From Escherichia coli (lineage in GTDB: Bacteria > Pseudomonadota > Gammaproteobacteria > Enterobacterales > Enterobacteriaceae), in NCBI RefSeq assembly GCF_024223415.1, contig NZ_CP100503.1: a stretch of 64,000 bases of DNA. One strand, written 5' to 3'. Shown piece after piece: positions 34,104 through 60,429 of the stretch. Made by a program: the position numbers and the translations under genes. Position 1 is the stretch's first letter. Each line of letters opens with the position of its first letter. The notes beneath the pieces are model-generated. The model saw nothing but the letters and a program-made list of their open reading frames with translations, did no database searches and was not told where the DNA came from.

Positions 34104-35212
34104 GAACATCGTTAGTTACCCGTGAAGAGATGATCGAGGCAATTGAACAGCACACTGCCTGTATCAGTACCAGGGATATACCGGGCGTTATTGCCAACTA
34201 CTTCATGATCACCAAACAACTTTACCGGAGAAAGGACAAAAACGCGGTTCACCGCATTCTGCTAACCGATATCCGTGAATACCTGCTCGAACAGGGTCAT
34301 CTGAATTACGCAACCGTCGCAGCCGAAGCACGCAAGGAGGCACACAGAATGAAAGCAACTAACGTTAAATCAGAAAAAATTTATGCACCTTCAGTTCAGG
34401 AATCGGAACTGGTGGTTGTTCAGAATCAGCCGGATGAAATTCCCGTTCTGGAATGGCAGGGAGTACGTGTCGTGACAACCGAAACTCTTGCTAGAGGGTA
34501 TGGGACCGAAACTAATAACATCAAAGTTAACTATACGCGTAATGCTGATCGCTTTGAGGAAGGTAAACATTACTTTCTACTAACTGGTTCAAAATTAAAA
34601 GAATTGAAGGACAAGGTTACTCAAAGTAACTTAGTCGCACCGCGAGCAAAGCACCTCACTCTCTGGACGGAACGCGGCGCAGCCCGCCACGCTAAAATGC
34701 TCGAAACCGATCAGGCATGGGCATTCTTTGAAAAACTGGAAGACAGCTACTTCCGACAAAAAGAACAGCAACCGATCGCAATCCCCCAGACGCTTCCTGA
34801 AGCTCTGCGCCTGGCTGCCGAACTGGCTGAACAAAAGCAACTTCTGGAACAGAAAGCCCACCAGCTAAATCAGCAGCTGGTGGCCGCAGCCCCTAAAGTC
34901 GAGTTTGCCGACCGGGTATCAGTGGCCAAGGGGATCCTGATTGGGAATTTTGCAAAGGTTGTTGGACTTAAGCAAAACGCGCTGTTTGCCTGGTTACGGG
35001 AGAACGGCATCCTGATAGCGTCCGGTGGACGTAAAAATGTGCCGTTCCAGCAATACATCAACGCCGGGTATTTCACGGTGAAAGAAGTGGTGCTGGATGA
35101 TGAAGATGGCTACCAGATACGGTTGACGCCCCAGCTAACTGGGAAAGGCCAGCAGTGGTTGACGCGTAAACTGCTCGATGCTGGCTTGTTAAAACCGGTG
35201 GCGGCTGAATAA
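34100..35212 (+). CDS. ant: Antirepressor Ant paralog C (KilA-C C-terminal domain)
   Basis: 370 aa; closest to Ant A throughout. Confidence 0.7.
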   Translation: MRTSLVTREEMIEAIEQHTACISTRDIPGVIANYFMITKQLYRRKDKNAVHRILLTDIREYLLEQGHLNYATVAAEARKEAHRMKATNVKSEKIYAPSVQESELVVVQNQPDEIPVLEWQGVRVVTTETLARGYGTETNNIKVNYTRNADRFEEGKHYFLLTGSKLKELKDKVTQSNLVAPRAKHLTLWTERGAARHAKMLETDQAWAFFEKLEDSYFRQKEQQPIAIPQTLPEALRLAAELAEQKQLLEQKAHQLNQQLVAAAPKVEFADRVSVAKGILIGNFAKVVGLKQNALFAWLRENGILIASGGRKNVPFQQYINAGYFTVKEVVLDDEDGYQIRLTPQLTGKGQQWLTRKLLDAGLLKPVAAE

Positions 35213-48679: not shown

Positions 48680-50269
48680 TTACTTAATAAGCAGCGGTAC
48701 GCCCTGGATACGACGGGCTACGCCAGTCGGGCAGCAGGCCCAGACTACTTCCCATTTATCGAATTCCGCCTGCGTAACTTTCAGCACATACGGTTCTGTA
48801 CCGTCAGCATCGGGATCACGAGGAGCCACCAGAGCGCCGGAGGCGACAAAGCGATCTAAAAGTTTGGTCATCCCTTTAGTCAGGCCAGCCGCAGTAATAC
48901 CGTCCGGGCTATGCTTCATCTGTCGGGCTAACTGGACAAAGAAACGGCTGATTGCATTCATCAGGGATGGGACGTGCTGGAAGTGCAGATAGTTATCCTG
49001 CGTGCAGCAAGTTAAAGCATCGTCGATGATCATCTGGCCAGAGGTGCCAACAGATACTTTATTGAGACGGCCCTTGACCATTGCTTCTTCGTCCGGGGTA
49101 TCTTCCGGATACAGCGGTTGAATTGACGCACGAGCAATGACGGCACGTTCTTCACCAGCCGGTGAGTAATGCCAACCGCCGACATCAGAGTTTTTCTTGA
49201 CGCCATGAGCTTTCGCCGCATACGCCACGCCAGACAGACCAAAGACCACACGGGATTGGGTCCATTTGTCTTTGCAGGAGAACGGATAGTGATAGAAAGA
49301 ACAGCTTACATAATCGGTACCAAGTAAACCGGTATCTTCAACAGCAGACAGCGCTTCCGTATACGTCAATGTCGGTTTGACATCAAAGAAGCCATCAATC
49401 AGGCGATCAGAACAGATATTACCTAACGCGGTGATAGCCGCATTGTCATAGCAGCCCAGGCCAAGAACAGCGGTGTACATGTACGGCGCATTGTTCAGCA
49501 CTTTCACCGCACGCAGGTACGCAGCGGTTGAGATTTTCGACTGATCACCGTTGGTACCACCAGTGAACGCCAACGATTTTTTGTTTGTTACTTTCGCTGT
49601 AGAAATCAGATCTTCATTAACAACCGCGCGCAGATATTTAGAACGGGCTTCCAGAGCCGTAGGCAGATAACACAAGCGGCCCATATCATCTTTCGCTTCT
49701 TCCGCCAAAGACACAGTGTGTGTCTCCAGGGTCGTTACCACGCCGAGCGAAGTCGTCTGGGTCAGTTTCAGGAGGAAGCGTTCATTACCTGCGCTGTCCG
49801 CTGTTGCCATTTCGATGGTTAACTCACGGGTAGGTGAAATACACGGATCACCATCATCAACGTAGATAGCAAAGGCTTCGCCGCTATCAAGTTCAATTTC
49901 AGAACCGTATGGCAACGCACTGTAAGCCGGTTCGCCTGATTCATCGAACATAATAACCGGGAACTTCGCATCATCCGGAACAGCACGGACAACATAACCA
50001 GACGTTTGCTGAATAGCTTCGTATACATGGCGAATTGGTTCGAACTGTGAGCCGGAAGACGGCTTCAGCGGTTCGCCGAGAACATCTTCGTAATTGGACT
50101 CAGTAACCGCAAGAACAGTAAACGGCTTGCCACGCGCAAATACGCCAATACCAGCCCACAAGCTGCTATTTAATGCAACACCGGTAGATAACATCGCATC
50201 GGTATTGATCGGGCTAACCGCGACGCCGGATGCATTACCTAATGACTGTTGAATTGAATATTGAGACAT
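48680..50269 (-). CDS. Putative tail sheath protein
   Basis: 529 aa; size and position (between major structural gene and smaller tail genes); assignment tentative. Confidence 0.4.
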   Translation of the reverse strand: MSQYSIQQSLGNASGVAVSPINTDAMLSTGVALNSSLWAGIGVFARGKPFTVLAVTESNYEDVLGEPLKPSSGSQFEPIRHVYEAIQQTSGYVVRAVPDDAKFPVIMFDESGEPAYSALPYGSEIELDSGEAFAIYVDDGDPCISPTRELTIEMATADSAGNERFLLKLTQTTSLGVVTTLETHTVSLAEEAKDDMGRLCYLPTALEARSKYLRAVVNEDLISTAKVTNKKSLAFTGGTNGDQSKISTAAYLRAVKVLNNAPYMYTAVLGLGCYDNAAITALGNICSDRLIDGFFDVKPTLTYTEALSAVEDTGLLGTDYVSCSFYHYPFSCKDKWTQSRVVFGLSGVAYAAKAHGVKKNSDVGGWHYSPAGEERAVIARASIQPLYPEDTPDEEAMVKGRLNKVSVGTSGQMIIDDALTCCTQDNYLHFQHVPSLMNAISRFFVQLARQMKHSPDGITAAGLTKGMTKLLDRFVASGALVAPRDPDADGTEPYVLKVTQAEFDKWEVVWACCPTGVARRIQGVPLLIK

Positions 50270-50329
50270 AACTTTCCCTGTTATGCGCCCCGCACGGGGG
50301 CGCTATGTTAAACGGAGAACTTCCCCTGA

Positions 50330-52057
50330 TTACTCAGAGTCACCGGCATCAATCGTGTCGCCGCTTATGAAGTTAAGCCCGCCTTTTTTGGCCATTGTCA
50401 GCGTTACACGAGTGAAGTAATCAGCGCCGTTGCGTGGGTGCATATCGTTGATAGCCGAACCCCACAGCGTGGTACGGTTGACCAGCGCCGGAGTGGTCGG
50501 ATGCTGGAACGGGATGGCCGGGACAGCATCACCAGTCACGAAGCCTGCTTTACCCGGATTTTCATCACGGACGTAGCACAGCACATCCATCGAGCTGAAC
50601 TGAATGTTCTCTGTCGTTAAGTTCTTACAAATACCAGCAGGTACTTCGTACACTTTCACGTTACCGAACAGGGTACCGATGTAGTGAACATACGGAGTCT
50701 GGATATAGTCTTCGGCTGGCTGGAAGAAATCCTTCGGCAACTGTTTGAAGAAAGATGCTGCATCAGCACCAGCAAACATCCCCATCGCACCAGAAGATTT
50801 AACGCGCTCAATAATGTCGCGATATACAGTCTGGAATTTGCCACGAATGATGGTTGCCCATACATCAAAGGACTGGTTAACCGGCAGAGCGATGTCAAAG
50901 GTGTCGTTCGCAAGAGTACGCCAGATCATGATGCGAAGACGCAGCATATCCTGTTCATGAGACAGGTATTCCTTCAGGGTGCGGAACTGTAGGGAACCCA
51001 GGTCCAGACCAAATTCACGCTGTGCTTCATACGCCGCCTGTACCGTGTGCTCAGCCGCGATAACGAACTGGCTTGGGAACAGGGTGTATTTCTTCATTTC
51101 GTGGTTGATCAGCGGGATCAGCTCAGGAGCGGCTTCAATATTGATTTCCGTCTCAATTGCGATCTCAGTGCCTTTATCCGGCGCTTTGGAGAACGACAGG
51201 GCAATCTGACCAATGTTGTAGTTCAGAGAGCAGGTAACAGTGATTTGCTCACCAGCAGCATTAGTAAACGAGTGAAGTAGGCTGCCGGAACCGTTATCAA
51301 CAACAGACTTAATACGGTTAACGTAGATATTAGTGCGACCTTTTCGGATTGGTACATTCTGGCCTTCGAAGTCTTCCATCTTGAAGGTTGCGGTTTTGCT
51401 GGTGCCATCGGAGCTTGCCACCAGCACATAGCGGCGGCGTAACTGGCTGTACACACCGACGGATTGCATGTCCAGAACATCACCAGCAGCATAAGAACCA
51501 AAAGAGGAACCTGCCACGTTAAAGACTTCATAGATGTCGGACTGGTCACGCGTAACCGGAATGAAGGTACACGCATCAGCGGTAGCTGCCCCCAACTGAA
51601 CAGGCAGGATCATCGCGAGGAATAAAGGCAGACGCATAACACCGTCAGAAACGCTCATCATCTCTGCTGCGACGGATTCCAGCATCGCTTTATTAGTGGC
51701 ATCCATGCTATTGCGGGTAGACTCAATCAGGCAGTTTTCCAGCGTCTGGTGGCAGGAGGCCAGAATTTCCGGACGCGGCATAGATTTATGTGCTGCGGCG
51801 TAGTCAGCCAGTGCACTTGCCCACGCTGTAGCGATTTGAGCGGTGGCATTATCAGAGATACCCGCAAAAACCGGGTCTTTACGTGCAGCTTCAAGGATAG
51901 ATGCGGCACGCGCGGCATCATCTTTAATGAATTGGTTATCAGTACCGAACTGCGCAGTGCTTGCCCAGCCAAGCACAGCTTTAGAGCGTTTTGCGATATC
52001 TGCAATACGATTCTGGTATTCGCGTAAGTTACTCAATTTACTCTTCCTTAAACACAA
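50330..52057 (-). CDS. Putative major head/structural protein (gene adjacent to parS, P1 gene 23 position)
   Basis: 575 aa ORF starting next to parS; assignment by position only. Confidence 0.4.
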   Translation of the reverse strand: MCLRKSKLSNLREYQNRIADIAKRSKAVLGWASTAQFGTDNQFIKDDAARAASILEAARKDPVFAGISDNATAQIATAWASALADYAAAHKSMPRPEILASCHQTLENCLIESTRNSMDATNKAMLESVAAEMMSVSDGVMRLPLFLAMILPVQLGAATADACTFIPVTRDQSDIYEVFNVAGSSFGSYAAGDVLDMQSVGVYSQLRRRYVLVASSDGTSKTATFKMEDFEGQNVPIRKGRTNIYVNRIKSVVDNGSGSLLHSFTNAAGEQITVTCSLNYNIGQIALSFSKAPDKGTEIAIETEINIEAAPELIPLINHEMKKYTLFPSQFVIAAEHTVQAAYEAQREFGLDLGSLQFRTLKEYLSHEQDMLRLRIMIWRTLANDTFDIALPVNQSFDVWATIIRGKFQTVYRDIIERVKSSGAMGMFAGADAASFFKQLPKDFFQPAEDYIQTPYVHYIGTLFGNVKVYEVPAGICKNLTTENIQFSSMDVLCYVRDENPGKAGFVTGDAVPAIPFQHPTTPALVNRTTLWGSAINDMHPRNGADYFTRVTLTMAKKGGLNFISGDTIDAGDSE

Positions 52058-52169
52058 GGCACTTGTGTGAATCCCTTTTCGGAAGAGATTTTATTGAAAG
52101 TCACTTGTTGACTTTCTCGTGACAAGCAATTTTTTTATTTTTTTCGGGAGTAGGGGAGGAAGGTAAAAT

Positions 52170-52261
52170 CCAAGGTGAAATCGTGGCGATTTCACCTTGA
52201 AATTTTAGATGGATTTACTTTAAAAACAGTAGGTTAATAGTGAAATTTGAATGGCGAAAGT
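52170..52261 (-). other. parS: parS partition site
   Basis: GTGAAAT-CGTGGCGA-ATTTCAC (box A heptamers and box B hexamer TCGCCA) at 52174-52196, A/T-rich IHF-like centre, second GTGAAAT...TGGCGA at 52240-52258; immediately downstream of parB stop. Confidence 0.75.
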
Positions 52262-53263
52262 TTAAGGCTTCGGCTTTTTATCGAGGCTCTTTCTAAGGAT
52301 ATGCCCAATCATCCTGTCGAGTTCTTCCTGTAGCTCTTTTGAAAGTCGATTAAACTCATAAGAAAATGCACGGCCTTTCACGCGCTTCCTTGCAAAGCGA
52401 TCCTTGTCCTCAAATTTCCATAATTCAGTAACTACGGACTTATCTTTAGAACCTTTATCCGTGAGTAGTGAGGCTTCCTTTGTTATCAAGCGCAGGATTT
52501 TATTTTTAACTTCATCTTCGGCCATTTCTTCAATGGATAAGATGTCGTTTATTTCCGGGGATATGTTTTGAATAAGCTGATCAAACTCTAAATTCTTGTT
52601 CCCCATTTCGTCGCCAACAGCACAAAGCGTTTTGTAGTCCGAAAAGGTTAATTCCGACTGCACAGGGAAAAGGGCGACTAATTCTTCCGGAGCACTCGCT
52701 GCCTGGAGAGCACGCGTGACCTTCGCCTGAGACAGCCCTTCTTTGGCTGCAATATCCTTCTGACTCATCCCATCATTTTTCATTCGCATCAAACGCAGAC
52801 CTATTTCTCGAATGCTGTGCTGCAATGCTGTCTGAACGTCTTTCGCTAAATTTTGCGCTTCCTGAACGCTGATCTCCTGGTCCGTGACTAAAACCCGCAA
52901 CCCTACGTTCTCTAAGATGGCAGAAGCTCGACGCCGGGAACCATCCAAAATTTCAATTTTCCCTGTAGCCTGTCTAACACCTATTGCAGGGTAAAATTGC
53001 TGATGCTTAATAGTGCTTCGGATACTTTTTAATGATTTTGGCGTAAGAGATGCCTGGTCACGCCCGTTGTTATGCTGATCAACAAAGGTATCGCTTTCTA
53101 CCTGGTTCGGAGGTATTACCTCTTCAATAAATGTGGCCTGGCGACCAGTTGATAACTTGAATACCTGCTCGACTCGATCGCCAGAGGCTGAAGAACTATC
53201 AAATCCGCTTAATATTGAAGGATTAAGGGTTCGCCCAATTGTTGGTCTGTTTTTCTTTGACAT
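52262..53263 (-). CDS. parB: Partition protein ParB
   Basis: 333 aa; size and position as P1 ParB. Confidence 0.9.
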   Translation of the reverse strand: MSKKNRPTIGRTLNPSILSGFDSSSASGDRVEQVFKLSTGRQATFIEEVIPPNQVESDTFVDQHNNGRDQASLTPKSLKSIRSTIKHQQFYPAIGVRQATGKIEILDGSRRRASAILENVGLRVLVTDQEISVQEAQNLAKDVQTALQHSIREIGLRLMRMKNDGMSQKDIAAKEGLSQAKVTRALQAASAPEELVALFPVQSELTFSDYKTLCAVGDEMGNKNLEFDQLIQNISPEINDILSIEEMAEDEVKNKILRLITKEASLLTDKGSKDKSVVTELWKFEDKDRFARKRVKGRAFSYEFNRLSKELQEELDRMIGHILRKSLDKKPKP

Positions 53264-53279
53264 GGGGGTTTCTTACTCC

Positions 53280-54476
53280 TCAGTTAGATCTGATAAATTC
53301 AATACGGTCAAAAACTGCTTTAGCAAAATCTTCCGCAGCAATTCGCGCGTTCTTCAATGCATCAGCACTACCAACATACGTTGCCGGGTTAGCTGAAATA
53401 ACAGTGTCAAAAGACTCGCCGCAGCGTTCAAAACCGTCAAGGCGAGGGAGGACGACATCAAGCATATCCCCACCGAACACTTCTTTAGCCAGGCTATGGC
53501 AATACTTATGGTCTGCCTTGTTACTCAACTTGGACATAAAACCAATGTTAGTCGCAAGCTGGCACTCGCAGCCTTCATCCGAAATGAGTTTCACCAACTC
53601 AGGAAGGCGAGCAACATATTTAAGCGATGAGTGGAAATCAACCGTTGCAGGCGGCAGAGGTGTAAACAGTATATTGGCCGAGGCCAAAGCATTTTTCAGG
53701 AAGGCGTCAAGGTGAGGACCACTATCAACGAGGATAAAGTCATAATCGCTCTTCAGCTTATCAATCACATTTTCTTTCAGGACTGCATGGATGTTCTGAC
53801 CCGGTAGATGCTCATTGCACAGCTCTCTCCAATCGGATGCAATAAAGGCATCGTCAATCGACGCAGGCATAACGTCAACCCCAGGTACAACAGAAGGAAC
53901 AATAAACTCCTCTAACAGCTCTTCACGGCTTACATTCTGCAACATAGCCTGTGCAGATGTTGCGTTTACGATACCAATAGAGTGTTTATGGCTTAAAAAC
54001 ATCGTTGCTGAAGATTGCGGATCAAGGTCAATAACCAGAATCCTTAAATCTTCCATCAGAAGATGAGGGTGAGCACGCATTGCATGCGCCAGAGAAACCG
54101 TCGATACAGTTTTTGACACACCGCCTTTAAGATTGGAGATGAAAATCACATACGCTTCGCTGTAGCGATCCCGGTATTTTGGCACTCCGCGATGTTCATA
54201 TATGTCAATGATGTTCTGAATTGACATCGCATATTTCATTGAAGAGCCAGCAGGGCGTTTATCGAAAACATAACCCTTTTCTTCCATTTCACTTACGGCA
54301 TAGTCAACGTTCGCTCGAGTCAGTAGAGGCAATTTTGCCAGTGCCGCTTTCGCATAGACTTGGTAAAACTCGTTCGCGTGTAGCTCATCCTTTTGCAACT
54401 GTACTTGTTCAGTCAGAACATTGAGCATTCTGTTTGCTCTTTGAGCAACCTTGTGAAGCTGGCTGGAATCACTCAT
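53280..54476 (-). CDS. parA: Partition ATPase ParA (type Ia, with N-terminal HTH)
   Basis: 398 aa; deviant Walker A KGGVSKT. Confidence 0.9.
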   Translation of the reverse strand: MSDSSQLHKVAQRANRMLNVLTEQVQLQKDELHANEFYQVYAKAALAKLPLLTRANVDYAVSEMEEKGYVFDKRPAGSSMKYAMSIQNIIDIYEHRGVPKYRDRYSEAYVIFISNLKGGVSKTVSTVSLAHAMRAHPHLLMEDLRILVIDLDPQSSATMFLSHKHSIGIVNATSAQAMLQNVSREELLEEFIVPSVVPGVDVMPASIDDAFIASDWRELCNEHLPGQNIHAVLKENVIDKLKSDYDFILVDSGPHLDAFLKNALASANILFTPLPPATVDFHSSLKYVARLPELVKLISDEGCECQLATNIGFMSKLSNKADHKYCHSLAKEVFGGDMLDVVLPRLDGFERCGESFDTVISANPATYVGSADALKNARIAAEDFAKAVFDRIEFIRSN

Positions 54477-54644
54477 CGAAAGTCATCCTTTATGCTGTAT
54501 TTTTGAATTTACTTAAAAATGCTGCATAAAATAATAATGTATGCACAGATGCTTGTACATAGCATTCTCTGCATGTTTGGTTCATTTTGCACGATTGAGA
54601 GTTACAAGGAGGACACAAAAAAGCCCCGTTCAGGGGCATCAGTG

Positions 54645-55454
54645 TTATTTGCTAAGAGCAGCGAATAATCGTTCGAAATCGATAGTATCTATAGCACGCG
54701 TAAGCGCCGGAAGTTCAGTCTCAAAGTACCCGTGTCGATCGTAAAAGAAGGGACCGAAGAGCGAGGCATGTTGGATTCTACTTCGCCCCAGCCCGGACAC
54801 ACAGTTAAGCCCATTACCGGCTAAAAGGCTAAAAAACTTCTCTGGATTATCGTGGTAAAGCTGGGAATCAATGGTGGCGGTTAACTCTTCCATAGGGAAG
54901 CACACCCGCCCTGTCTCCCAGGGATATTTAGTCCGAAGCATAAACACTGCTTTCAGCAATTCACATTGAGCGCGGATCGCGTCCGGTTCATAGCCAGATA
55001 TGGAGACATAAGCCACGTCCCTCATTCCTGCGTCATCTTTGAAAGTCACGATAGAAGTAACATCCAACTCTTTTTCGAAAGAGCGAGCAGCATCTACTGG
55101 ACGCTGAAGTAAATCATTCGACTTAATGCGCTCGAGAATCCCTCCCCACATATCATTTAGATATTCGATATGAGCCAAAACCTTATCAAGACACTCTCGT
55201 GTAAACCATTCAGTATGCCCGCCACCGGCGCTTTTCTCCCACGGCGCATTCCAGGGGAAAAAGGTTGCGTGTAAAGCCCGCTCAAGATTAACTATTGCCA
55301 AACGCGTACCACGATAGACCCGTGAAAGCGCAAAATCGGGACTCACTTGTAGCCCTTTAAACCGTGCCAATGGACCACATGAAATGCCGATTTTAAAAGT
55401 ATCTCCATTCTCCGGCACCAGAACGTAGAGGTAGTGTTGTTTCTCTTCTTGCAT
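54645..55454 (-). CDS. T5orf172 / GIY-YIG-like domain protein
   Basis: 269 aa; YLYVL...FKIGIS...GGHTEWF pattern at N-terminus; sits between incA iterons and parA. Confidence 0.5.
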   Translation of the reverse strand: MQEEKQHYLYVLVPENGDTFKIGISCGPLARFKGLQVSPDFALSRVYRGTRLAIVNLERALHATFFPWNAPWEKSAGGGHTEWFTRECLDKVLAHIEYLNDMWGGILERIKSNDLLQRPVDAARSFEKELDVTSIVTFKDDAGMRDVAYVSISGYEPDAIRAQCELLKAVFMLRTKYPWETGRVCFPMEELTATIDSQLYHDNPEKFFSLLAGNGLNCVSGLGRSRIQHASLFGPFFYDRHGYFETELPALTRAIDTIDFERLFAALSK

Positions 55455-55488
55455 ATCAATACCACTGCTTGATGAGAACCGCGCAAAT

Positions 55489-55745
55489 GTTGACTATGCG
55501 CGAAAGTTAATGTGAATAGTTGACTATGCGCGATGTGACTACAGTAAAAAGTTGACTGTAGTCGATTTAACTCCACCAAAGATCGACTATGTAAGATATT
55601 GTCGGGAGAAACGTTGACTATACGCGATGAAATGACCCTAAAAGCCATCTCAATAGCGACTTGCAGAATATTGACGCCAGCAAAAATCCACCAGCGTCAA
55701 CGAATGTCGCCTATAGTCAACTTCTCGCTATCGCATATAGTCAAT
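55489..55745 (-). repeat. incA: incA-like iteron array downstream of repA
   Basis: About 8 copies of GTTGACTATGCGCGA-like 15-mers in both orientations (55489, 55519, 55551, 55581, 55613, 55706, 55731). Confidence 0.7.
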
Positions 55746-55746
55746 A

Positions 55747-56631
55747 TTATGGATTACGCTTATGGATCTGGAAGCCGATTTTCCTGCCGTTTTTTATCTC
55801 TGAAAATTTAAGATATTCAATAGCTTCCAAATCTTTCATGGCTTTTCTGATAACGCTATTTTGCACGCTAACGGATGATTTGAGATTAAGCCTTGCTCTA
55901 AGGCGCTCAATGCTGACAGGTGCCGGGTTGGCGGGTAGAGCCTCAAAGAATGTATACAGTACCTTGGCCGTCTCTTTGCGCCCGAGCTTATCCAGCATCT
56001 TCAGCTTCAGGATTCGCTTATAGTCAACATAGTAAAGTTCAGATAGCTGTTTCTGCGGCTGGATCTCGATAACATCAAGCTCGGTATTCAGGCTGCTATA
56101 TGCCAACAAGTTGACGTTAATGTTATTGAGATGACCTTTTGCCGCCGGGAAGCGGAATTTGACAACTGTCTGCTGAATGCGTGTCAGAGAGTCATCAATA
56201 CTTTTACGGAACGCCTTTGAAAGGCGCTTACGTGGATAGCCGCATCGATCGGCAAACTCGGAGAATGGCAGGGTGATTATGCCGTCATCATCAGGTGCGT
56301 AGTCAAACAACGCGGAGGTTATGCCCACCCACACCTTAAAATCAGTATCCATATCCAGGCGTGGACCATGAATTTCAATTCCCTCATAGCCTTCCTGCTC
56401 AACAATTTTGAGGCTTGATAGTTCTTCGGTTGCGTTCGTTGTGTTTGTAGTAACTGACGATCCGCGACGTAGTGCCACATTGGTAGATTTTAAGGTTGGC
56501 ACAAACACACCTAAGCGCAACAAAGCGATGGGTTGTATAGTGCTATTGTTATTGGGTTTCAGGCTGTGGATTTCTCCTGTATTTCCTGCAACTTCTTCAA
56601 CGCTAAGGAAGCCTTTATTTTCTTCCGGCAT
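55747..56631 (-). CDS. repA: Plasmid replication initiator RepA
   Basis: Flanked by iteron arrays; start set at MPEENKG (294 aa), ORF track extends to a TTG at 56688. Confidence 0.75.
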   Translation of the reverse strand: MPEENKGFLSVEEVAGNTGEIHSLKPNNNSTIQPIALLRLGVFVPTLKSTNVALRRGSSVTTNTTNATEELSSLKIVEQEGYEGIEIHGPRLDMDTDFKVWVGITSALFDYAPDDDGIITLPFSEFADRCGYPRKRLSKAFRKSIDDSLTRIQQTVVKFRFPAAKGHLNNINVNLLAYSSLNTELDVIEIQPQKQLSELYYVDYKRILKLKMLDKLGRKETAKVLYTFFEALPANPAPVSIERLRARLNLKSSVSVQNSVIRKAMKDLEAIEYLKFSEIKNGRKIGFQIHKRNP

Positions 56632-56693
56632 CGTGGTTTCTCCATATGTGGCGCGGCCTGGCGTCATCTGGATTGCAGTTATCAACAACTGTG

Positions 56694-56811
56694 AATAGTC
56701 AGGCTCTAAAATCGCGTACAGTCAATGTTTCTGTCGCGTATAGTCAACAATAAATCGCGTGCAGTCAACAATAAATCGTGCACAGTCAACATAAAATCGC
56801 GTATAGTCAAT
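56694..56811 (-). repeat. oriR: oriR iteron array upstream of repA
   Basis: Five direct repeats of TCGCGTATAGTCAAC-like units at about 21-bp spacing. Confidence 0.7.
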
Positions 56812-56964
56812 GTTAATCCCATTTCAGGCCAGAAATGGCGCGGCTTACAGCGATCCGGGATCTTCTTTGGATCTTCCTGGGTTCTCTTTAGGATCTGTTT
56901 ATTGGATCTATGCTGTGGATAAGTTGAATAAACCGGCCAACATAGCCGGTTGGAAGGAAGGGTA

Positions 56965-57357
56965 TTATTCTACGCTTTCGATAAGAAGACCATGTTCATA
57001 ACATTTAAGCTCATCGCCTTCGTACAGGAATTGGTATCCAATACCACCATTTTCATGGACATTAGGGAATAACTCATAACTCACTGAAGAGCAAATCACA
57101 CCAATGCAACGATCAACGCCTTCTCGTTCTTCAGTGCTGAAAAAATCCTCTTCGGTAAGAACATGAGTACATTGCTCATCAGCATAGGTCGGAAATACAT
57201 GCTCGATGCAATCCGGGTGTTTTAAACCAAGCTGATCGGCAAGCTCGAAAGCATGACGGTATTGTTCAGATCCTGGCTTGCCAACAGTGATGTGCTCAAT
57301 TTTGTAGATTGAAGTCGCTTTGTTGATAGTTTGCTTTACTGTTACTTTATCAGACAT
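56965..57357 (-). CDS. Hypothetical protein (upfA position)
   Basis: 130 aa ORF upstream of oriR. Confidence 0.4.
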   Translation of the reverse strand: MSDKVTVKQTINKATSIYKIEHITVGKPGSEQYRHAFELADQLGLKHPDCIEHVFPTYADEQCTHVLTEEDFFSTEEREGVDRCIGVICSSVSYELFPNVHENGGIGYQFLYEGDELKCYEHGLLIESVE

Positions 57358-57368
57358 AAAAATCCCTT

Positions 57369-57701
57369 TTAGTTACCGCTGATAGCGCGGTTGTAATCAT
57401 TAACGTTGCGATTCTTCCTGTTAATCCCCTTCAGCATCGTTTCTGTATCAAGGATATAGGCTGGCAGATCATCAAAATATTCACTGCTAAATTCTGGCAT
57501 CCTGCACATAAATGCACTTTTGGGGGCAGGGTGGTTAACCTTTGTCGGCGTCGGCGTTAAATTCGCTGATCGACTCCCGGAGCAACCGCTGAGTGTCAGC
57601 AGGAATACGCTGGCGAACATTACCCGCCGCAACCAGTTGTTTCTGAACTTCAGCTTTTCGTTCCATTTGCCTGTCAGCATACTTGGCTTGTTCTGATTCA
57701 T
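57369..57701 (-). CDS. Putative membrane lipoprotein (mlp position)
   Basis: Lipobox LTLSGC; true start probably internal, so the gene is shorter than the ORF. Confidence 0.45.
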   Translation of the reverse strand: MNQNKPSMLTGKWNEKLKFRNNWLRRVMFASVFLLTLSGCSGSRSANLTPTPTKVNHPAPKSAFMCRMPEFSSEYFDDLPAYILDTETMLKGINRKNRNVNDYNRAISGN

Positions 57702-57957
57702 TTTTCACTTCCTGGCTGTGAAAATGTTGCTCTGCTTTGTTCATCGTCTCAATGGCCTGGTTAAGATCCATTATTGACTTATCACGTTCCTTAACAGCCT
57801 GATCAAGACTGCCAATTTTCTCCATGGCTTGCTTTAGCTGATGACGTTCCCATGCAAACCCAGCACCAACAAGTGCGCAAATCAGAACAAGAACACCAGT
57901 AGCAGCAAGTTTCTCCTTCAAAGACAAAGCTGTTTTTAACGTAGAAAAGAATGACAT
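57535..57957 (-). CDS. Membrane-anchored coiled-coil protein (ppfA position)
   Basis: Start at MSFFST with AGGAGG RBS; N-terminal TM segment. Confidence 0.4.
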   Translation of the reverse strand: MSFFSTLKTALSLKEKLAATGVLVLICALVGAGFAWERHQLKQAMEKIGSLDQAVKERDKSIMDLNQAIETMNKAEQHFHSQEVKNESEQAKYADRQMERKAEVQKQLVAAGNVRQRIPADTQRLLRESISEFNADADKG

Positions 57958-57996
57958 GTCTTCCTCCTGAAGAAAAATTATCAATGAAGTCCTTTG

Positions 57997-58842
57997 TTAC
58001 TGTGCCGCTTTGTTTAATTCATCAAGAACAGAATCAGGAACCAAAGCGGCAACTGCGCTGGCTGTGCTGGCCTTATTTGCTGATGCTTCCGCAAGCGCGG
58101 TACCGATAGCATGGTTATAAGCAGTTATGGCTACGTTGGCGCTTTCATTCGCTCGTTCATACTGCTGTTGTAACGCAGTTGTGGGCGCTGTTGTCTGGTT
58201 GAAAACAACCCCAAACTGTTCAGTTGCTACTTTCAGAGATTCAATTTGCTCTTCTGTTAGTGCTGGTGGGGGAATGGCAGTGCCGCCGCCTGAACCAGAG
58301 CCTGACGAGCTTCCTGAACCAGTGTTAAGGGTCTGGTTAATCTCCCCCATAGCAGCGACTAAACTTGATGTATTAAGCGCGTTAACAGCGTCCTCAAGCG
58401 ATTTAGTAATATTCACATCACCAATGGCAATAGAGATCAGCAGTTCTGAAACTTCTCGCTCATTAGCACGGCAGTAAACATCCCAACCAATATCGAGTTG
58501 AAGCAGCATTGACAGATCTGCATAACCAGCCAACAGGTCCGCGTGCTTAGTTGCCAGTTCTCCAATGTTCGTTAAGCCGGTTGTGGTTGTTCTGATCGTT
58601 GAAACATAGCTGGTAATAGTGTCGGGATAGACAATTGTATCCAGAATTAATCCGGTCAATTCTTCTGCAAGCTGTTTTGCCGTGTTAGCACTGTTTCGTG
58701 CCGATGTTATGGCACCAGGTGTTTTCATCCCACCGGCAGCGGCCAATTTTTTATATGCGGATAACTGGTAGTCTTTTTCCAGCATGATATCTCCTAACTT
58801 ACCTGAACCAGGCCGTCTCCTGACGCTACGGTAGAGCCGCAT
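57997..58842 (-). CDS. Hypothetical protein with Gly/Ser-rich linker
   Basis: 281 aa ORF; start may be internal (MLEKDY at 58785). Confidence 0.35.
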   Translation of the reverse strand: MRLYRSVRRRPGSGKLGDIMLEKDYQLSAYKKLAAAGGMKTPGAITSARNSANTAKQLAEELTGLILDTIVYPDTITSYVSTIRTTTTGLTNIGELATKHADLLAGYADLSMLLQLDIGWDVYCRANEREVSELLISIAIGDVNITKSLEDAVNALNTSSLVAAMGEINQTLNTGSGSSSGSGSGGGTAIPPPALTEEQIESLKVATEQFGVVFNQTTAPTTALQQQYERANESANVAITAYNHAIGTALAEASANKASTASAVAALVPDSVLDELNKAAQ

Positions 58843-59078
58843 GAAACAGGGTCACCAACGCATACGACCCCTTTACCATTGACGGTAAACCATGCCCTGG
58901 TTGATATAGCTTGCCCACCGTGCGTACTGTTTCCATCGGTATGCTGTGCATATTGCTTACCATCAACTAACACTTCGACTCCGTTGACTTTAAGTAGTGG
59001 TTCACTCTCTACAGGAGGCCTGGATGGGAATCCTCCGTGCCCCGAACAAATGCTGTCTTTTGTTGCAATACTTGCCAC
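58794..59078 (-). CDS. Small Cys/Gly-rich protein, possible PAAR-like spike tip
   Basis: 94 aa; VNGxxVxVxGD...CG pattern; weak assignment. Confidence 0.3.
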   Translation of the reverse strand: MASIATKDSICSGHGGFPSRPPVESEPLLKVNGVEVLVDGKQYAQHTDGNSTHGGQAISTRAWFTVNGKGVVCVGDPVSCGSTVASGDGLVQVS

Positions 59079-59158
59079 GTCATCACCAATTATTTGCTCT
59101 GGTTTTTGTTATTTTAACTTAGGTTACTTGTGGTCTAAATGGCGTTAACTATTGCATA

Positions 59159-59175
59159 ATTGCTCTAATAAATAT
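59159..59175 (+). promoter_or_regulatory. C1 operator upstream of uhr-hrdC-dmt
   Basis: ATTGCTCTAATAAATAT. Confidence 0.65.
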
Positions 59176-59531
59176 TGTTTTTTATGTCGTGTTTTCGGTA
59201 CCATTCAGCCATCGCCCTTCAATGGGCATTTGTTTGGAGTCGTCAGATGCAGATGGAGCTAATAAGCCGCAAGGAGTTCGATAGCCGTGTAACCAGCGGT
59301 GAACTCGACAACTTGCAGGCTATCAAGGTGAAAGAAGGCTTTTGCCTCATTGGGAATCAGAGCGGAACAAATCGCGTTTTTATGCTTCGCCGTACGGATT
59401 TGAAGCCATTTGTCTGGAAGAACGAAATTGGTCCCAGCTCATACGCTCAAACGAGGGGGTGCCACAACCTGGCCTTTTTCTACAAAGACGAGCTTTCTGT
59501 GGTTGATATTCAAGGGTTACAACATGTTTAA
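59175..59531 (+). CDS. uhr: Hypothetical protein upstream of hrdC
   Basis: ORF overlapping hrdC start by 8 bp; start may be internal. Confidence 0.4.
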
Positions 59532-60429
59532 GCACTGGAAAAACATTACTATTTATAAACTTTCTCGTGAGGCGGATCTGACCGACTTAGAAGATAAAAA
59601 GAAAATGATCCTTTTCACGCCATGCGGTAGTCAGGATATGGCCAAGTTCGGTTTTGTATCTCCATTTGGTGATAATTCCGAAGTTATCGCTATGCATGGA
59701 AATGGTTTTATCCTTGTTGAAGCAAAGCGCGAAACAAAAATTCTTCCCCCGCCGGTTATCCAGCGAGCTATTCAAGAAAAAATTGAAAAACTTGAGCAAG
59801 AACAAGCGCGTAAACTGAAGAAAACAGAGAAGGACTCCCTGAAAGACGAAGTTCTGCATTCTCTTCTGCCACGGGCTTTTTCAAAGTTTTCTGTTATCCA
59901 GGCGATCTACGACGGTTCAACTAAACGTATCTATATCAATGCCAGCACGCGGCAGGCAGAGGATATGCTCGCGCTTATGCGTAAGTCTCTGGGTTCTCTT
60001 CCTGTTGTTCCCCTGAGTGTTGAAAATCCCATTGAATTAACGCTGACCGACTGGGTACGTGATGGTAGTGCTCCACAGGGATTTCAAATGGGGGATGCGG
60101 CAGAACTTAAGGCAGTGCTTGAGGATGGCGGTATTGCCCGAGTGAAAAAGCAGGATTTGGGAAGCGATGAAATTTCCACACACCTGGAAGCTGGCAAGCT
60201 CGTCACTAAGTTGGCACTCGACTGGCAGAACCGCATTAAATTTACACTGGACCATAACTTCAGCCTTACCAGCGTCAAATTTGCGGATGAATTGCTTGAG
60301 CAGAACTCTGATATTGATAGTGAAGATGTAGCGCAGCGACTGGACGCAGATTTCTTCCTGTTGACCAGTGAAATTTCGTGCCTGGTTGATGCTCTGGTAA
60401 ATGCCCTTGGTGGAGAGGCTAAGCAGTGA
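59524..60429 (+). CDS. hrdC: RdgC-homologous recombination-associated protein
   Basis: Start at MFKHWKNIT; strong similarity to E. coli RdgC as I recall it ([11 protein letters not shown]..., [13 protein letters not shown]). Confidence 0.8.

Follow-up and report, generated by a model that had tools for sequence, protein, structure and literature searches.

At positions 54579-56929 of the window (the whole 64-kb stretch of E. coli DNA analysed here), a repA gene lies between two arrays of short repeats, next to a P1-type partition module and within a P1-like phage backbone. Because repA is on the minus strand, "upstream" of the gene means higher coordinates throughout. The features are as follows.

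52175-54559, minus strand: P1-type partition module flanking the cassette (parS, 52175-52257; parB, 52262-53263; parA, 53280-54476; operator/promoter, 54474-54559)
54579-56929, minus strand: p0111-type replicon cassette of 2.35 kb, replacing the P1 R replicon in a P1 backbone
54645-55454, minus strand: 269-aa ORF with an N-terminal T5orf172/GIY-YIG-like domain, a passenger of the cassette (Pfam T5orf172, 7.5e-6; phrog_681 'endonuclease', 1.1e-9)
55489-55503, 55519-55533, 55551-55565 and 55613-55627, minus strand: clear copies in the distal block of an incA-like array, inverted relative to the origin iterons
55582-55596, minus strand: degenerate, in-phase copy in the distal block
55687-55701, plus strand: weak half-site in the proximal block of the incA-like array (block span, 55687-55745)
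55707-55721 and 55731-55745, plus strand: clear copies in the proximal block, in the orientation of the origin iterons
55747-56631, minus strand: repA, ATG start, 294 aa, a predicted iteron-binding initiator (in pO111_2 this ORF carries the RefSeq annotation of plasmid replication initiator)
56014-56028, plus strand: intragenic iteron TCGCTTATAGTCAAC in repA (14/15 match; codons V-D-Y-K-R)
56679-56687, plus strand: DnaA-box-like sequence TTATCAACA, one mismatch, between iteron 1 and repA
56712-56726, 56734-56748, 56755-56769, 56776-56790 and 56797-56811, plus strand: five direct origin iterons (incC-like)
56852-56908: five GATC (Dam) sites in short repeats (at 56852, 56859, 56870, 56892 and 56905), the presumed origin opening region
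56914-56922, minus strand: perfect DnaA box TTATCCACA at the outer end of the origin

The iteron repeats are real and far above chance. When the 15-mer core TCGCGTATAGTCAAC was sought with up to three mismatches, 12 of its 13 matches in the 64-kb window fell within 55489-56811, whereas dinucleotide shuffles of the whole 64 kb average 1.35 matches and reach at most 6; the sole match elsewhere (34526-34540) is within chance expectation. The initial annotation had described repA as flanked by iteron arrays, with five direct 15-mers upstream, and both descriptions are accurate: positions 55489 and 56811 are exactly the first and last iteron bases, and the upstream copies fill 56712-56811 at spacings of 22, 21, 21 and 21 bp. 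It had also counted about eight downstream copies in mixed orientation; the mixed orientation stands, whereas the number is reached only with degenerate copies, the array consisting of six clear iterons plus one or two degenerate ones in two opposed blocks. With its degenerate copy included, the distal block (55489-55627) has spacings of 30, 32, 31 and 31 bp, a phase of about 31 bp, and the last iteron of the proximal block ends 2 bp from the repA stop codon. The intragenic copy has a chance expectation of 7.6e-5 per gene. On the repA-sense strand the consensus unit is gTTGACTaTacGCGA (the window iteron in its 19-mer form is gTTGACTaTacGCGAtttt), in which the conserved blocks TTGACT and GCGA lie about one helical turn apart, a spacing that would suit binding by a two-winged-helix monomer.

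Around the iterons, the five GATC sites at 56852-56908 form the densest 80-bp GATC cluster of the window, and repA is preceded by a Shine-Dalgarno sequence, GGAGAA, at 56643-56638. The DnaA-box-like TTATCAACA is weak evidence, sites with one mismatch to a DnaA box being frequent in the window. A promoter/terminator consensus scan gave three promoter-like sites versus 3.2 in shuffles, so that the repA promoter is not assignable in this way; the sole minus-strand candidate (56816-56788) overlaps the distal rather than the proximal origin iterons. An Rfam scan of 54400-57100 at E up to 1 returned no RNA family. Between the two blocks of the control array lies an inverted repeat, TTGACGC-N16-GCGTCAA (55671-55700), whose arms resemble the iteron's GTCAAC half. 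Transcribed, it would fold, about 45 nt past the repA stop, into a hairpin of 14 bp (region z = -2.6); we rejected it as a terminator proper for want of a U-tract, but it may serve as a weak terminator or as a RepA site of the dimer type. In addition, a GC-rich 13-mer, GTGGCGCGGCCTG, is found at 56648-56660, between iteron 1 and the ribosome-binding site of repA. The identical 13-mer occurs in P1, but on the opposite side of the iteron array (OP279344.1, 5008-5020). Since a degenerate copy, ATGGCGCGGCTTA, occupies the P1-equivalent position in the window (56835-56847), direct copies of this GC-rich motif flank the five iterons on both sides.

RepA is a two-winged-helix (WH1 + WH2) initiator of the RepFIB/P1 RepA family, as far as the domain matches and the predicted fold allow. 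It matches PHROG 775 and Pfam Rep3_C (27.3 bits; cut-off 21.1), and its Rep3_N score of 22.0 bits lies 0.4 under the cut-off of 22.4. The AlphaFold (AF2) model, built from 38 homologues, has a pLDDT of 74.7, with low confidence for about 70 N-terminal residues. Foldseek matched the model to the Rep_3 winged-helix initiators (Vibrio RctB domains 2-3, F RepE, R6K pi and the WH1 domain of pPS10 RepA) with probabilities of 0.8-1.0 and E values down to 3e-7. The predicted WH1 superposes well (TM about 0.5), whereas whole-chain TM-scores to RepE are low (0.2-0.35), and the solved Rep_3 structures are only 10-16% identical to RepA in structural alignments. A sequence search of RepA against PDB chains gave no meaningful match, and NCBIfam and PADLOC scans of RepA and the 269-aa ORF gave none at all.

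The initial annotation had likened the arrangement to the oriR/incA layout of P1, and the likeness holds feature by feature when P1 is put through the identical repeat analysis, with NC_005856 as the annotated record and OP279344 as a further isolate. The P1 replicon occupies the same position within the same phage backbone. Its origin iterons (10-14) are spaced 22/21/21/21 bp, exactly as the five in the window. P1 incA comprises six distal iterons (1-6), about 31 bp apart and inverted, and three proximal ones (7-9) in origin orientation, whereas the downstream array of the window has 4+1 distal and 2+1 proximal copies (six strong plus one or two weak, versus nine). In P1, incA iteron 9 abuts the repA stop, as does the last proximal copy here. 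The Dam sites annotated in P1 oriR, likewise five, align with the GATC sites of the window (about 77% identity), and the annotated DnaA site of P1 aligns with the perfect DnaA box. The differences are equally clear: P1 has two tandem DnaA boxes whereas the window has one good box and a degenerate second one, with a 7-bp gap; P1 repA has no intragenic iteron; and P1 has no T5orf172 gene between incA and parA. The strand of repA, the count of six clear downstream copies (versus P1's nine) and the single intragenic copy all amend the initial annotation.

Very probably, the region is a p0111-type replicon by which a P1-like phage-plasmid replicates as a plasmid prophage. All steps of the mechanism that we propose are transferred from P1, where they are established knowledge (summarised in the NC_005856 annotation). 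By this analogy, the five origin iterons would be bound by RepA monomers, which together with host DnaA would open the GATC-rich DNA next to them, and initiation would be coupled to Dam methylation and hence to the cell cycle. RepA bound to the origin iterons would probably repress its own promoter, and the downstream array would titrate RepA and pair with the origin ("handcuffing"), keeping the copy number near one per chromosome. The P1 parallel likewise suggests dependence on RepA, DnaA, Dam methylation and DnaK/DnaJ/GrpE, with copy control by handcuffing.

It is unlikely, in our judgement, that the repeats at 55489-55745 serve mainly as an operator/promoter through which RepA controls the 269-aa T5orf172 gene, or that they are left over from a second origin. 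The array does end 35 bp upstream of the ORF start (55454), the ORF is co-directional with repA, and the iterons contain -10-like (TATAGT) and -35-like (TTGACT) hexamers. However, the two-block orientation and the phasing of about 31 bp copy those of P1 incA, for which a control role is experimentally established; a relative with an 85% identical RepA (L009, see below) retains the downstream array without a homologue of the ORF; and in pO111_2 the ORF is broken in two yet the array is nearly unchanged (one difference in 306 bases). Copy-control and operator roles for the array are not mutually exclusive.

The replicon as a whole is already known, common and ordinary. It is 99.5% identical at the nucleotide level, over 1,601 bp, to that of pO111_2 from E. 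coli O111:H- 11128 (NC_013370/AP010962), and AP010962 is the p0111 rep reference (PMC11165635). The same replicon is carried by the p0111 phage-plasmids SJ46, RCS47, JL22, phi456 and vB_EcoM-Ro157c2YLVW; the window region is 97.7-99.1% identical to the phage records of SJ46, RCS47, JL22, phi456 and others, and its RepA is 100% identical to that of SJ46 and JL22 and 99.7% identical to that of RCS47 and pO111_2. From this group the window shows essentially no difference: the replicon sits at the same site between parA and upfA and is accompanied by the same 269-aa ORF. At least 80% of the replicon is present in 398 PLSDB plasmids (about 400) and in 412 of 5,426 complete E. coli genomes. The window carries a minority sequence variant, since only 77 of 580 PLSDB matches are at least 99% identical to it and most are about 98% identical. 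Among five p0111 representatives the control array, spacers included, is almost invariant, and the leader between iteron 1 and repA varies.

Two further observations concern the records themselves. The PLSDB/MOB-suite label for the p0111 replicon is "IncHI1B", whereas the literature (PlasmidFinder) name is p0111, a naming trap that arises because RepA belongs to a broad RepFIB-like family. Plasmid AP027771.1 (189.8 kb), typed with two "IncHI1B" replicons, has at 3646-3972 a p0111 origin with four iterons, one 21-bp unit being missing; this plasmid may be a cointegrate of two P1-like elements.

This conservation bears on whether the module is active. That it is an inactive remnant, in an element maintained by another replicon, is very improbable: nothing direct speaks for it beyond the fact that the window holds only part of the element, whereas RepA is intact and 99-100% conserved across hundreds of plasmids of about 90-100 kb, variants hardly differ in their iterons or anywhere in the incA-like region, the p0111 replicon is the only one typed for pO111_2, and the literature treats p0111 as the replicon type of these phage-plasmids (PMC9603915, PMC11165635).

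The P1 and p0111 replicons thus have the same origin geometry and backbone but different RepA proteins and iterons. The iteron sequences are unrelated (gTTGACTaTacGCGA in the window versus GATGTGTGCTGGAGGGAAA in P1): the P1 19-mer, allowing up to three mismatches, has no match in the window, and the window's iteron core has none in 20 kb of P1. The window RepA is 41% identical to P1 RepA over its full length by BLASTP (E 2e-71), or 39.9% in a global alignment; the identity reported between the RepA proteins of SJ46 and P1 is 42% (PMC5241659). These comparisons of iterons and RepA with P1 and P7, on which the initial annotation had made the incompatibility group turn, settle the specificity at the level of sequence as p0111, not the IncY type of P1/P7. 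The idea that the replicon is P1/P7 (IncY) itself, or a variant with the same RepA-iteron specificity, shares with the facts the P1 layout, spacing and flanking genes but is already refuted by sequence comparison and keeps next to no probability, given the reciprocal absence of iterons, a RepA only 40-41% identical to those of P1 and P7 (which are 100% identical to each other), and the greater closeness of p0111 RepA to IncFIB/SSU5-type RepA (44-49%) than to P1 RepA.

The relatives of RepA outside the p0111 group place it in a wider family. The nearest are an 85% identical variant, a 53% identical Providencia/Proteus protein and proteins of the IncFIB/SSU5 type, all closer than P1 RepA. The 85% variant (L009) comes from different, phage-like plasmids of E. 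coli and E. marmotae, about 90-94 kb in size and without P1 flanks; its iterons are of the same family, with five in the origin, one within the gene and others in a downstream array. In a metagenomic variant at 90% identity (L011) the arrangement is P1-like throughout, again with the same iteron family. In the Providencia replicon the iterons are related but differ in their central bases (GTTGATGCTAGTCGATTTT versus GTTGACTATACGCGATTTT in the window); arrays lie on both sides of rep, together with DnaA boxes, and the downstream array has 14 copies at 43-bp spacing. The RepFIB-type replicons (IncF/IncFIB(K) and SSU5-like phage-plasmids, whose protein is annotated as "RepB family plasmid replication initiator protein") encode a RepA 44-49% identical to that of the window and differ from it in array sizes and genomic context. 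The iteron layout is a trait of the whole family. As for the intragenic iteron, it is kept in both the 85% (L009, 4104-4118) and the 90% (L011, 1137-1151) relatives, and in the 53% relative from Providencia a perfect 19-nt iteron likewise lies within the gene, though at another codon position (L007, 2903-2921); the intragenic iteron may be an extra RepA-binding or control site.

The partition genes tell a different story from the replication genes. ParA and ParB of the window are both 99.7% identical to those of P1, versus 57% (ParA) and 40% (39.9%, ParB) to those of P7, and parS matches P1 at 78 of 83 positions, with none of the five differences in an annotated ParB box. By sequence, the element is p0111 in its rep module and P1 in its par module. 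Since RepA and the iterons differ from those of P1, no replication-based incompatibility with P1/P7 (IncY) would be expected; since parA, parB and parS are of the P1 type, partition-based (incB) incompatibility with P1 itself still would be. We infer that the element is replication-compatible with IncY replicons of the P1/P7 type and partition-incompatible with elements carrying P1 par. That two replicase families occupy one position has been taken to suggest replication compatibility (PMC7969092); the statements on IncY/p0111 compatibility in PMC7969092 and PMC11165635 do not discuss partition incompatibility.

Par type is not always what a record's name or description would lead one to expect. 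A passage in PMC5241659, citing the RCS47 paper, describes RCS47 ParA/ParB as P7-type and distant from P1, whereas we find RCS47 ParA to be 100% identical to the window ParA (99.7% to P1, 57% to P7), the opposite of that statement as regards ParA. In OP279344.1 ("phage P1 del res del mod"; region 1398-3565), a P7-type ParB (99.4% identical to P7, 39.9% to reference P1) accompanies a P1/IncY replicon, which implies that par and rep types assort independently in this phage group.

The borders of the cassette can be placed closely by comparison with P1. By blastn against NC_005856, positions 50001-54578 are 99.2% identical and 56828-60000 are 95.5% identical overall; the P1-like flanks take in parAB/gp23 to the left and the stretch from upfA to hrdC to the right, and the backbone around the cassette is otherwise 95-99% identical. 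On the left, the near-identity to P1 ends at 54578, 19 bp past the par promoter's -35; on the right, the cassette stops at the upfA terminator hairpin. A right border at 56828, between the iterons and the GATC sites, was considered and rejected: along 56828-56969 the sliding identity to P1 is about 77%, and it rises to at least 90% (94-100% for the most part) between 56970 and about 58170, so that the GATC/DnaA half of the origin is a diverged homologue (about 77%) inside the cassette, which ends at about 56929. From 56930 onward the window is identical to P1 isolate OP279344. Within these borders lie the 269-aa ORF, repA, the control array and an origin that is complete and homologous to that of P1 though diverged from it. 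Farther out, the Ser/Gly-rich part of an ORF homologous to upfB (58170-58320) falls to 72-86% identity to P1 in an otherwise nearly 100% identical flank.

No domain is assigned to the C-terminal 170 aa of the 269-aa ORF. PLSDB has the ORF in 400 records, in all of them at least 90% identical; it is intact in the window, split in two in pO111_2 and absent from the 85% RepA relatives. A chimeric query joining the ORF to P1 incA/repA found the ORF next to an IncY replicon in 0 of 774 plasmid records, leaving independent mobility of the T5orf172 ORF unsupported; in 13 plasmid records the same query matched at two separate places. Plasmid pSvP1 (MN510446) reportedly has two ORFs inserted between repA and parA.

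The replacement of one replicon by the other is itself on record. In JL22, repA'(p0111) and one unknown gene stand in place of repA(IncY) (PMC9603915), and replicon type switches often among such elements, with 17 changes in one tree (PMC11165635). A role for the 269-aa ORF in cassette exchange is speculative. The T5orf172/GIY-YIG-like gene is a constant companion of the p0111 cassette and is never seen with the IncY replicon. It could be imagined to encode a homing-type nuclease that cuts the IncY allele, after which the whole replicon would be replaced by gene conversion through the conserved parA/upfA flanks; we give this proposal, or the milder one that the repA iteron is an additional control site, little chance of being right. 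If true, homing would account for the reported frequent replicon switching among P1-like phage-plasmids.

Very little of this would surprise a plasmid biologist; indeed, we think that nothing would. The IncY/p0111 swap is already published, and the map of the iterons, the precise limits of the cassette and the pairing of rep and par types add a little to it but are no discoveries. Our literature searches found no description of p0111 together with iterons and no experiment on the p0111 origin, and the p0111 iteron anatomy seems not to have been described before. The analysis places the element of the window as a p0111-type, P1-like phage-plasmid, a group under surveillance for ESBL, mcr and toxin genes, and its rep and par types together predict rules for its coexistence with other elements. 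As a natural swap of specificity, the IncY/p0111 pair could serve experiments on iteron recognition and handcuffing.
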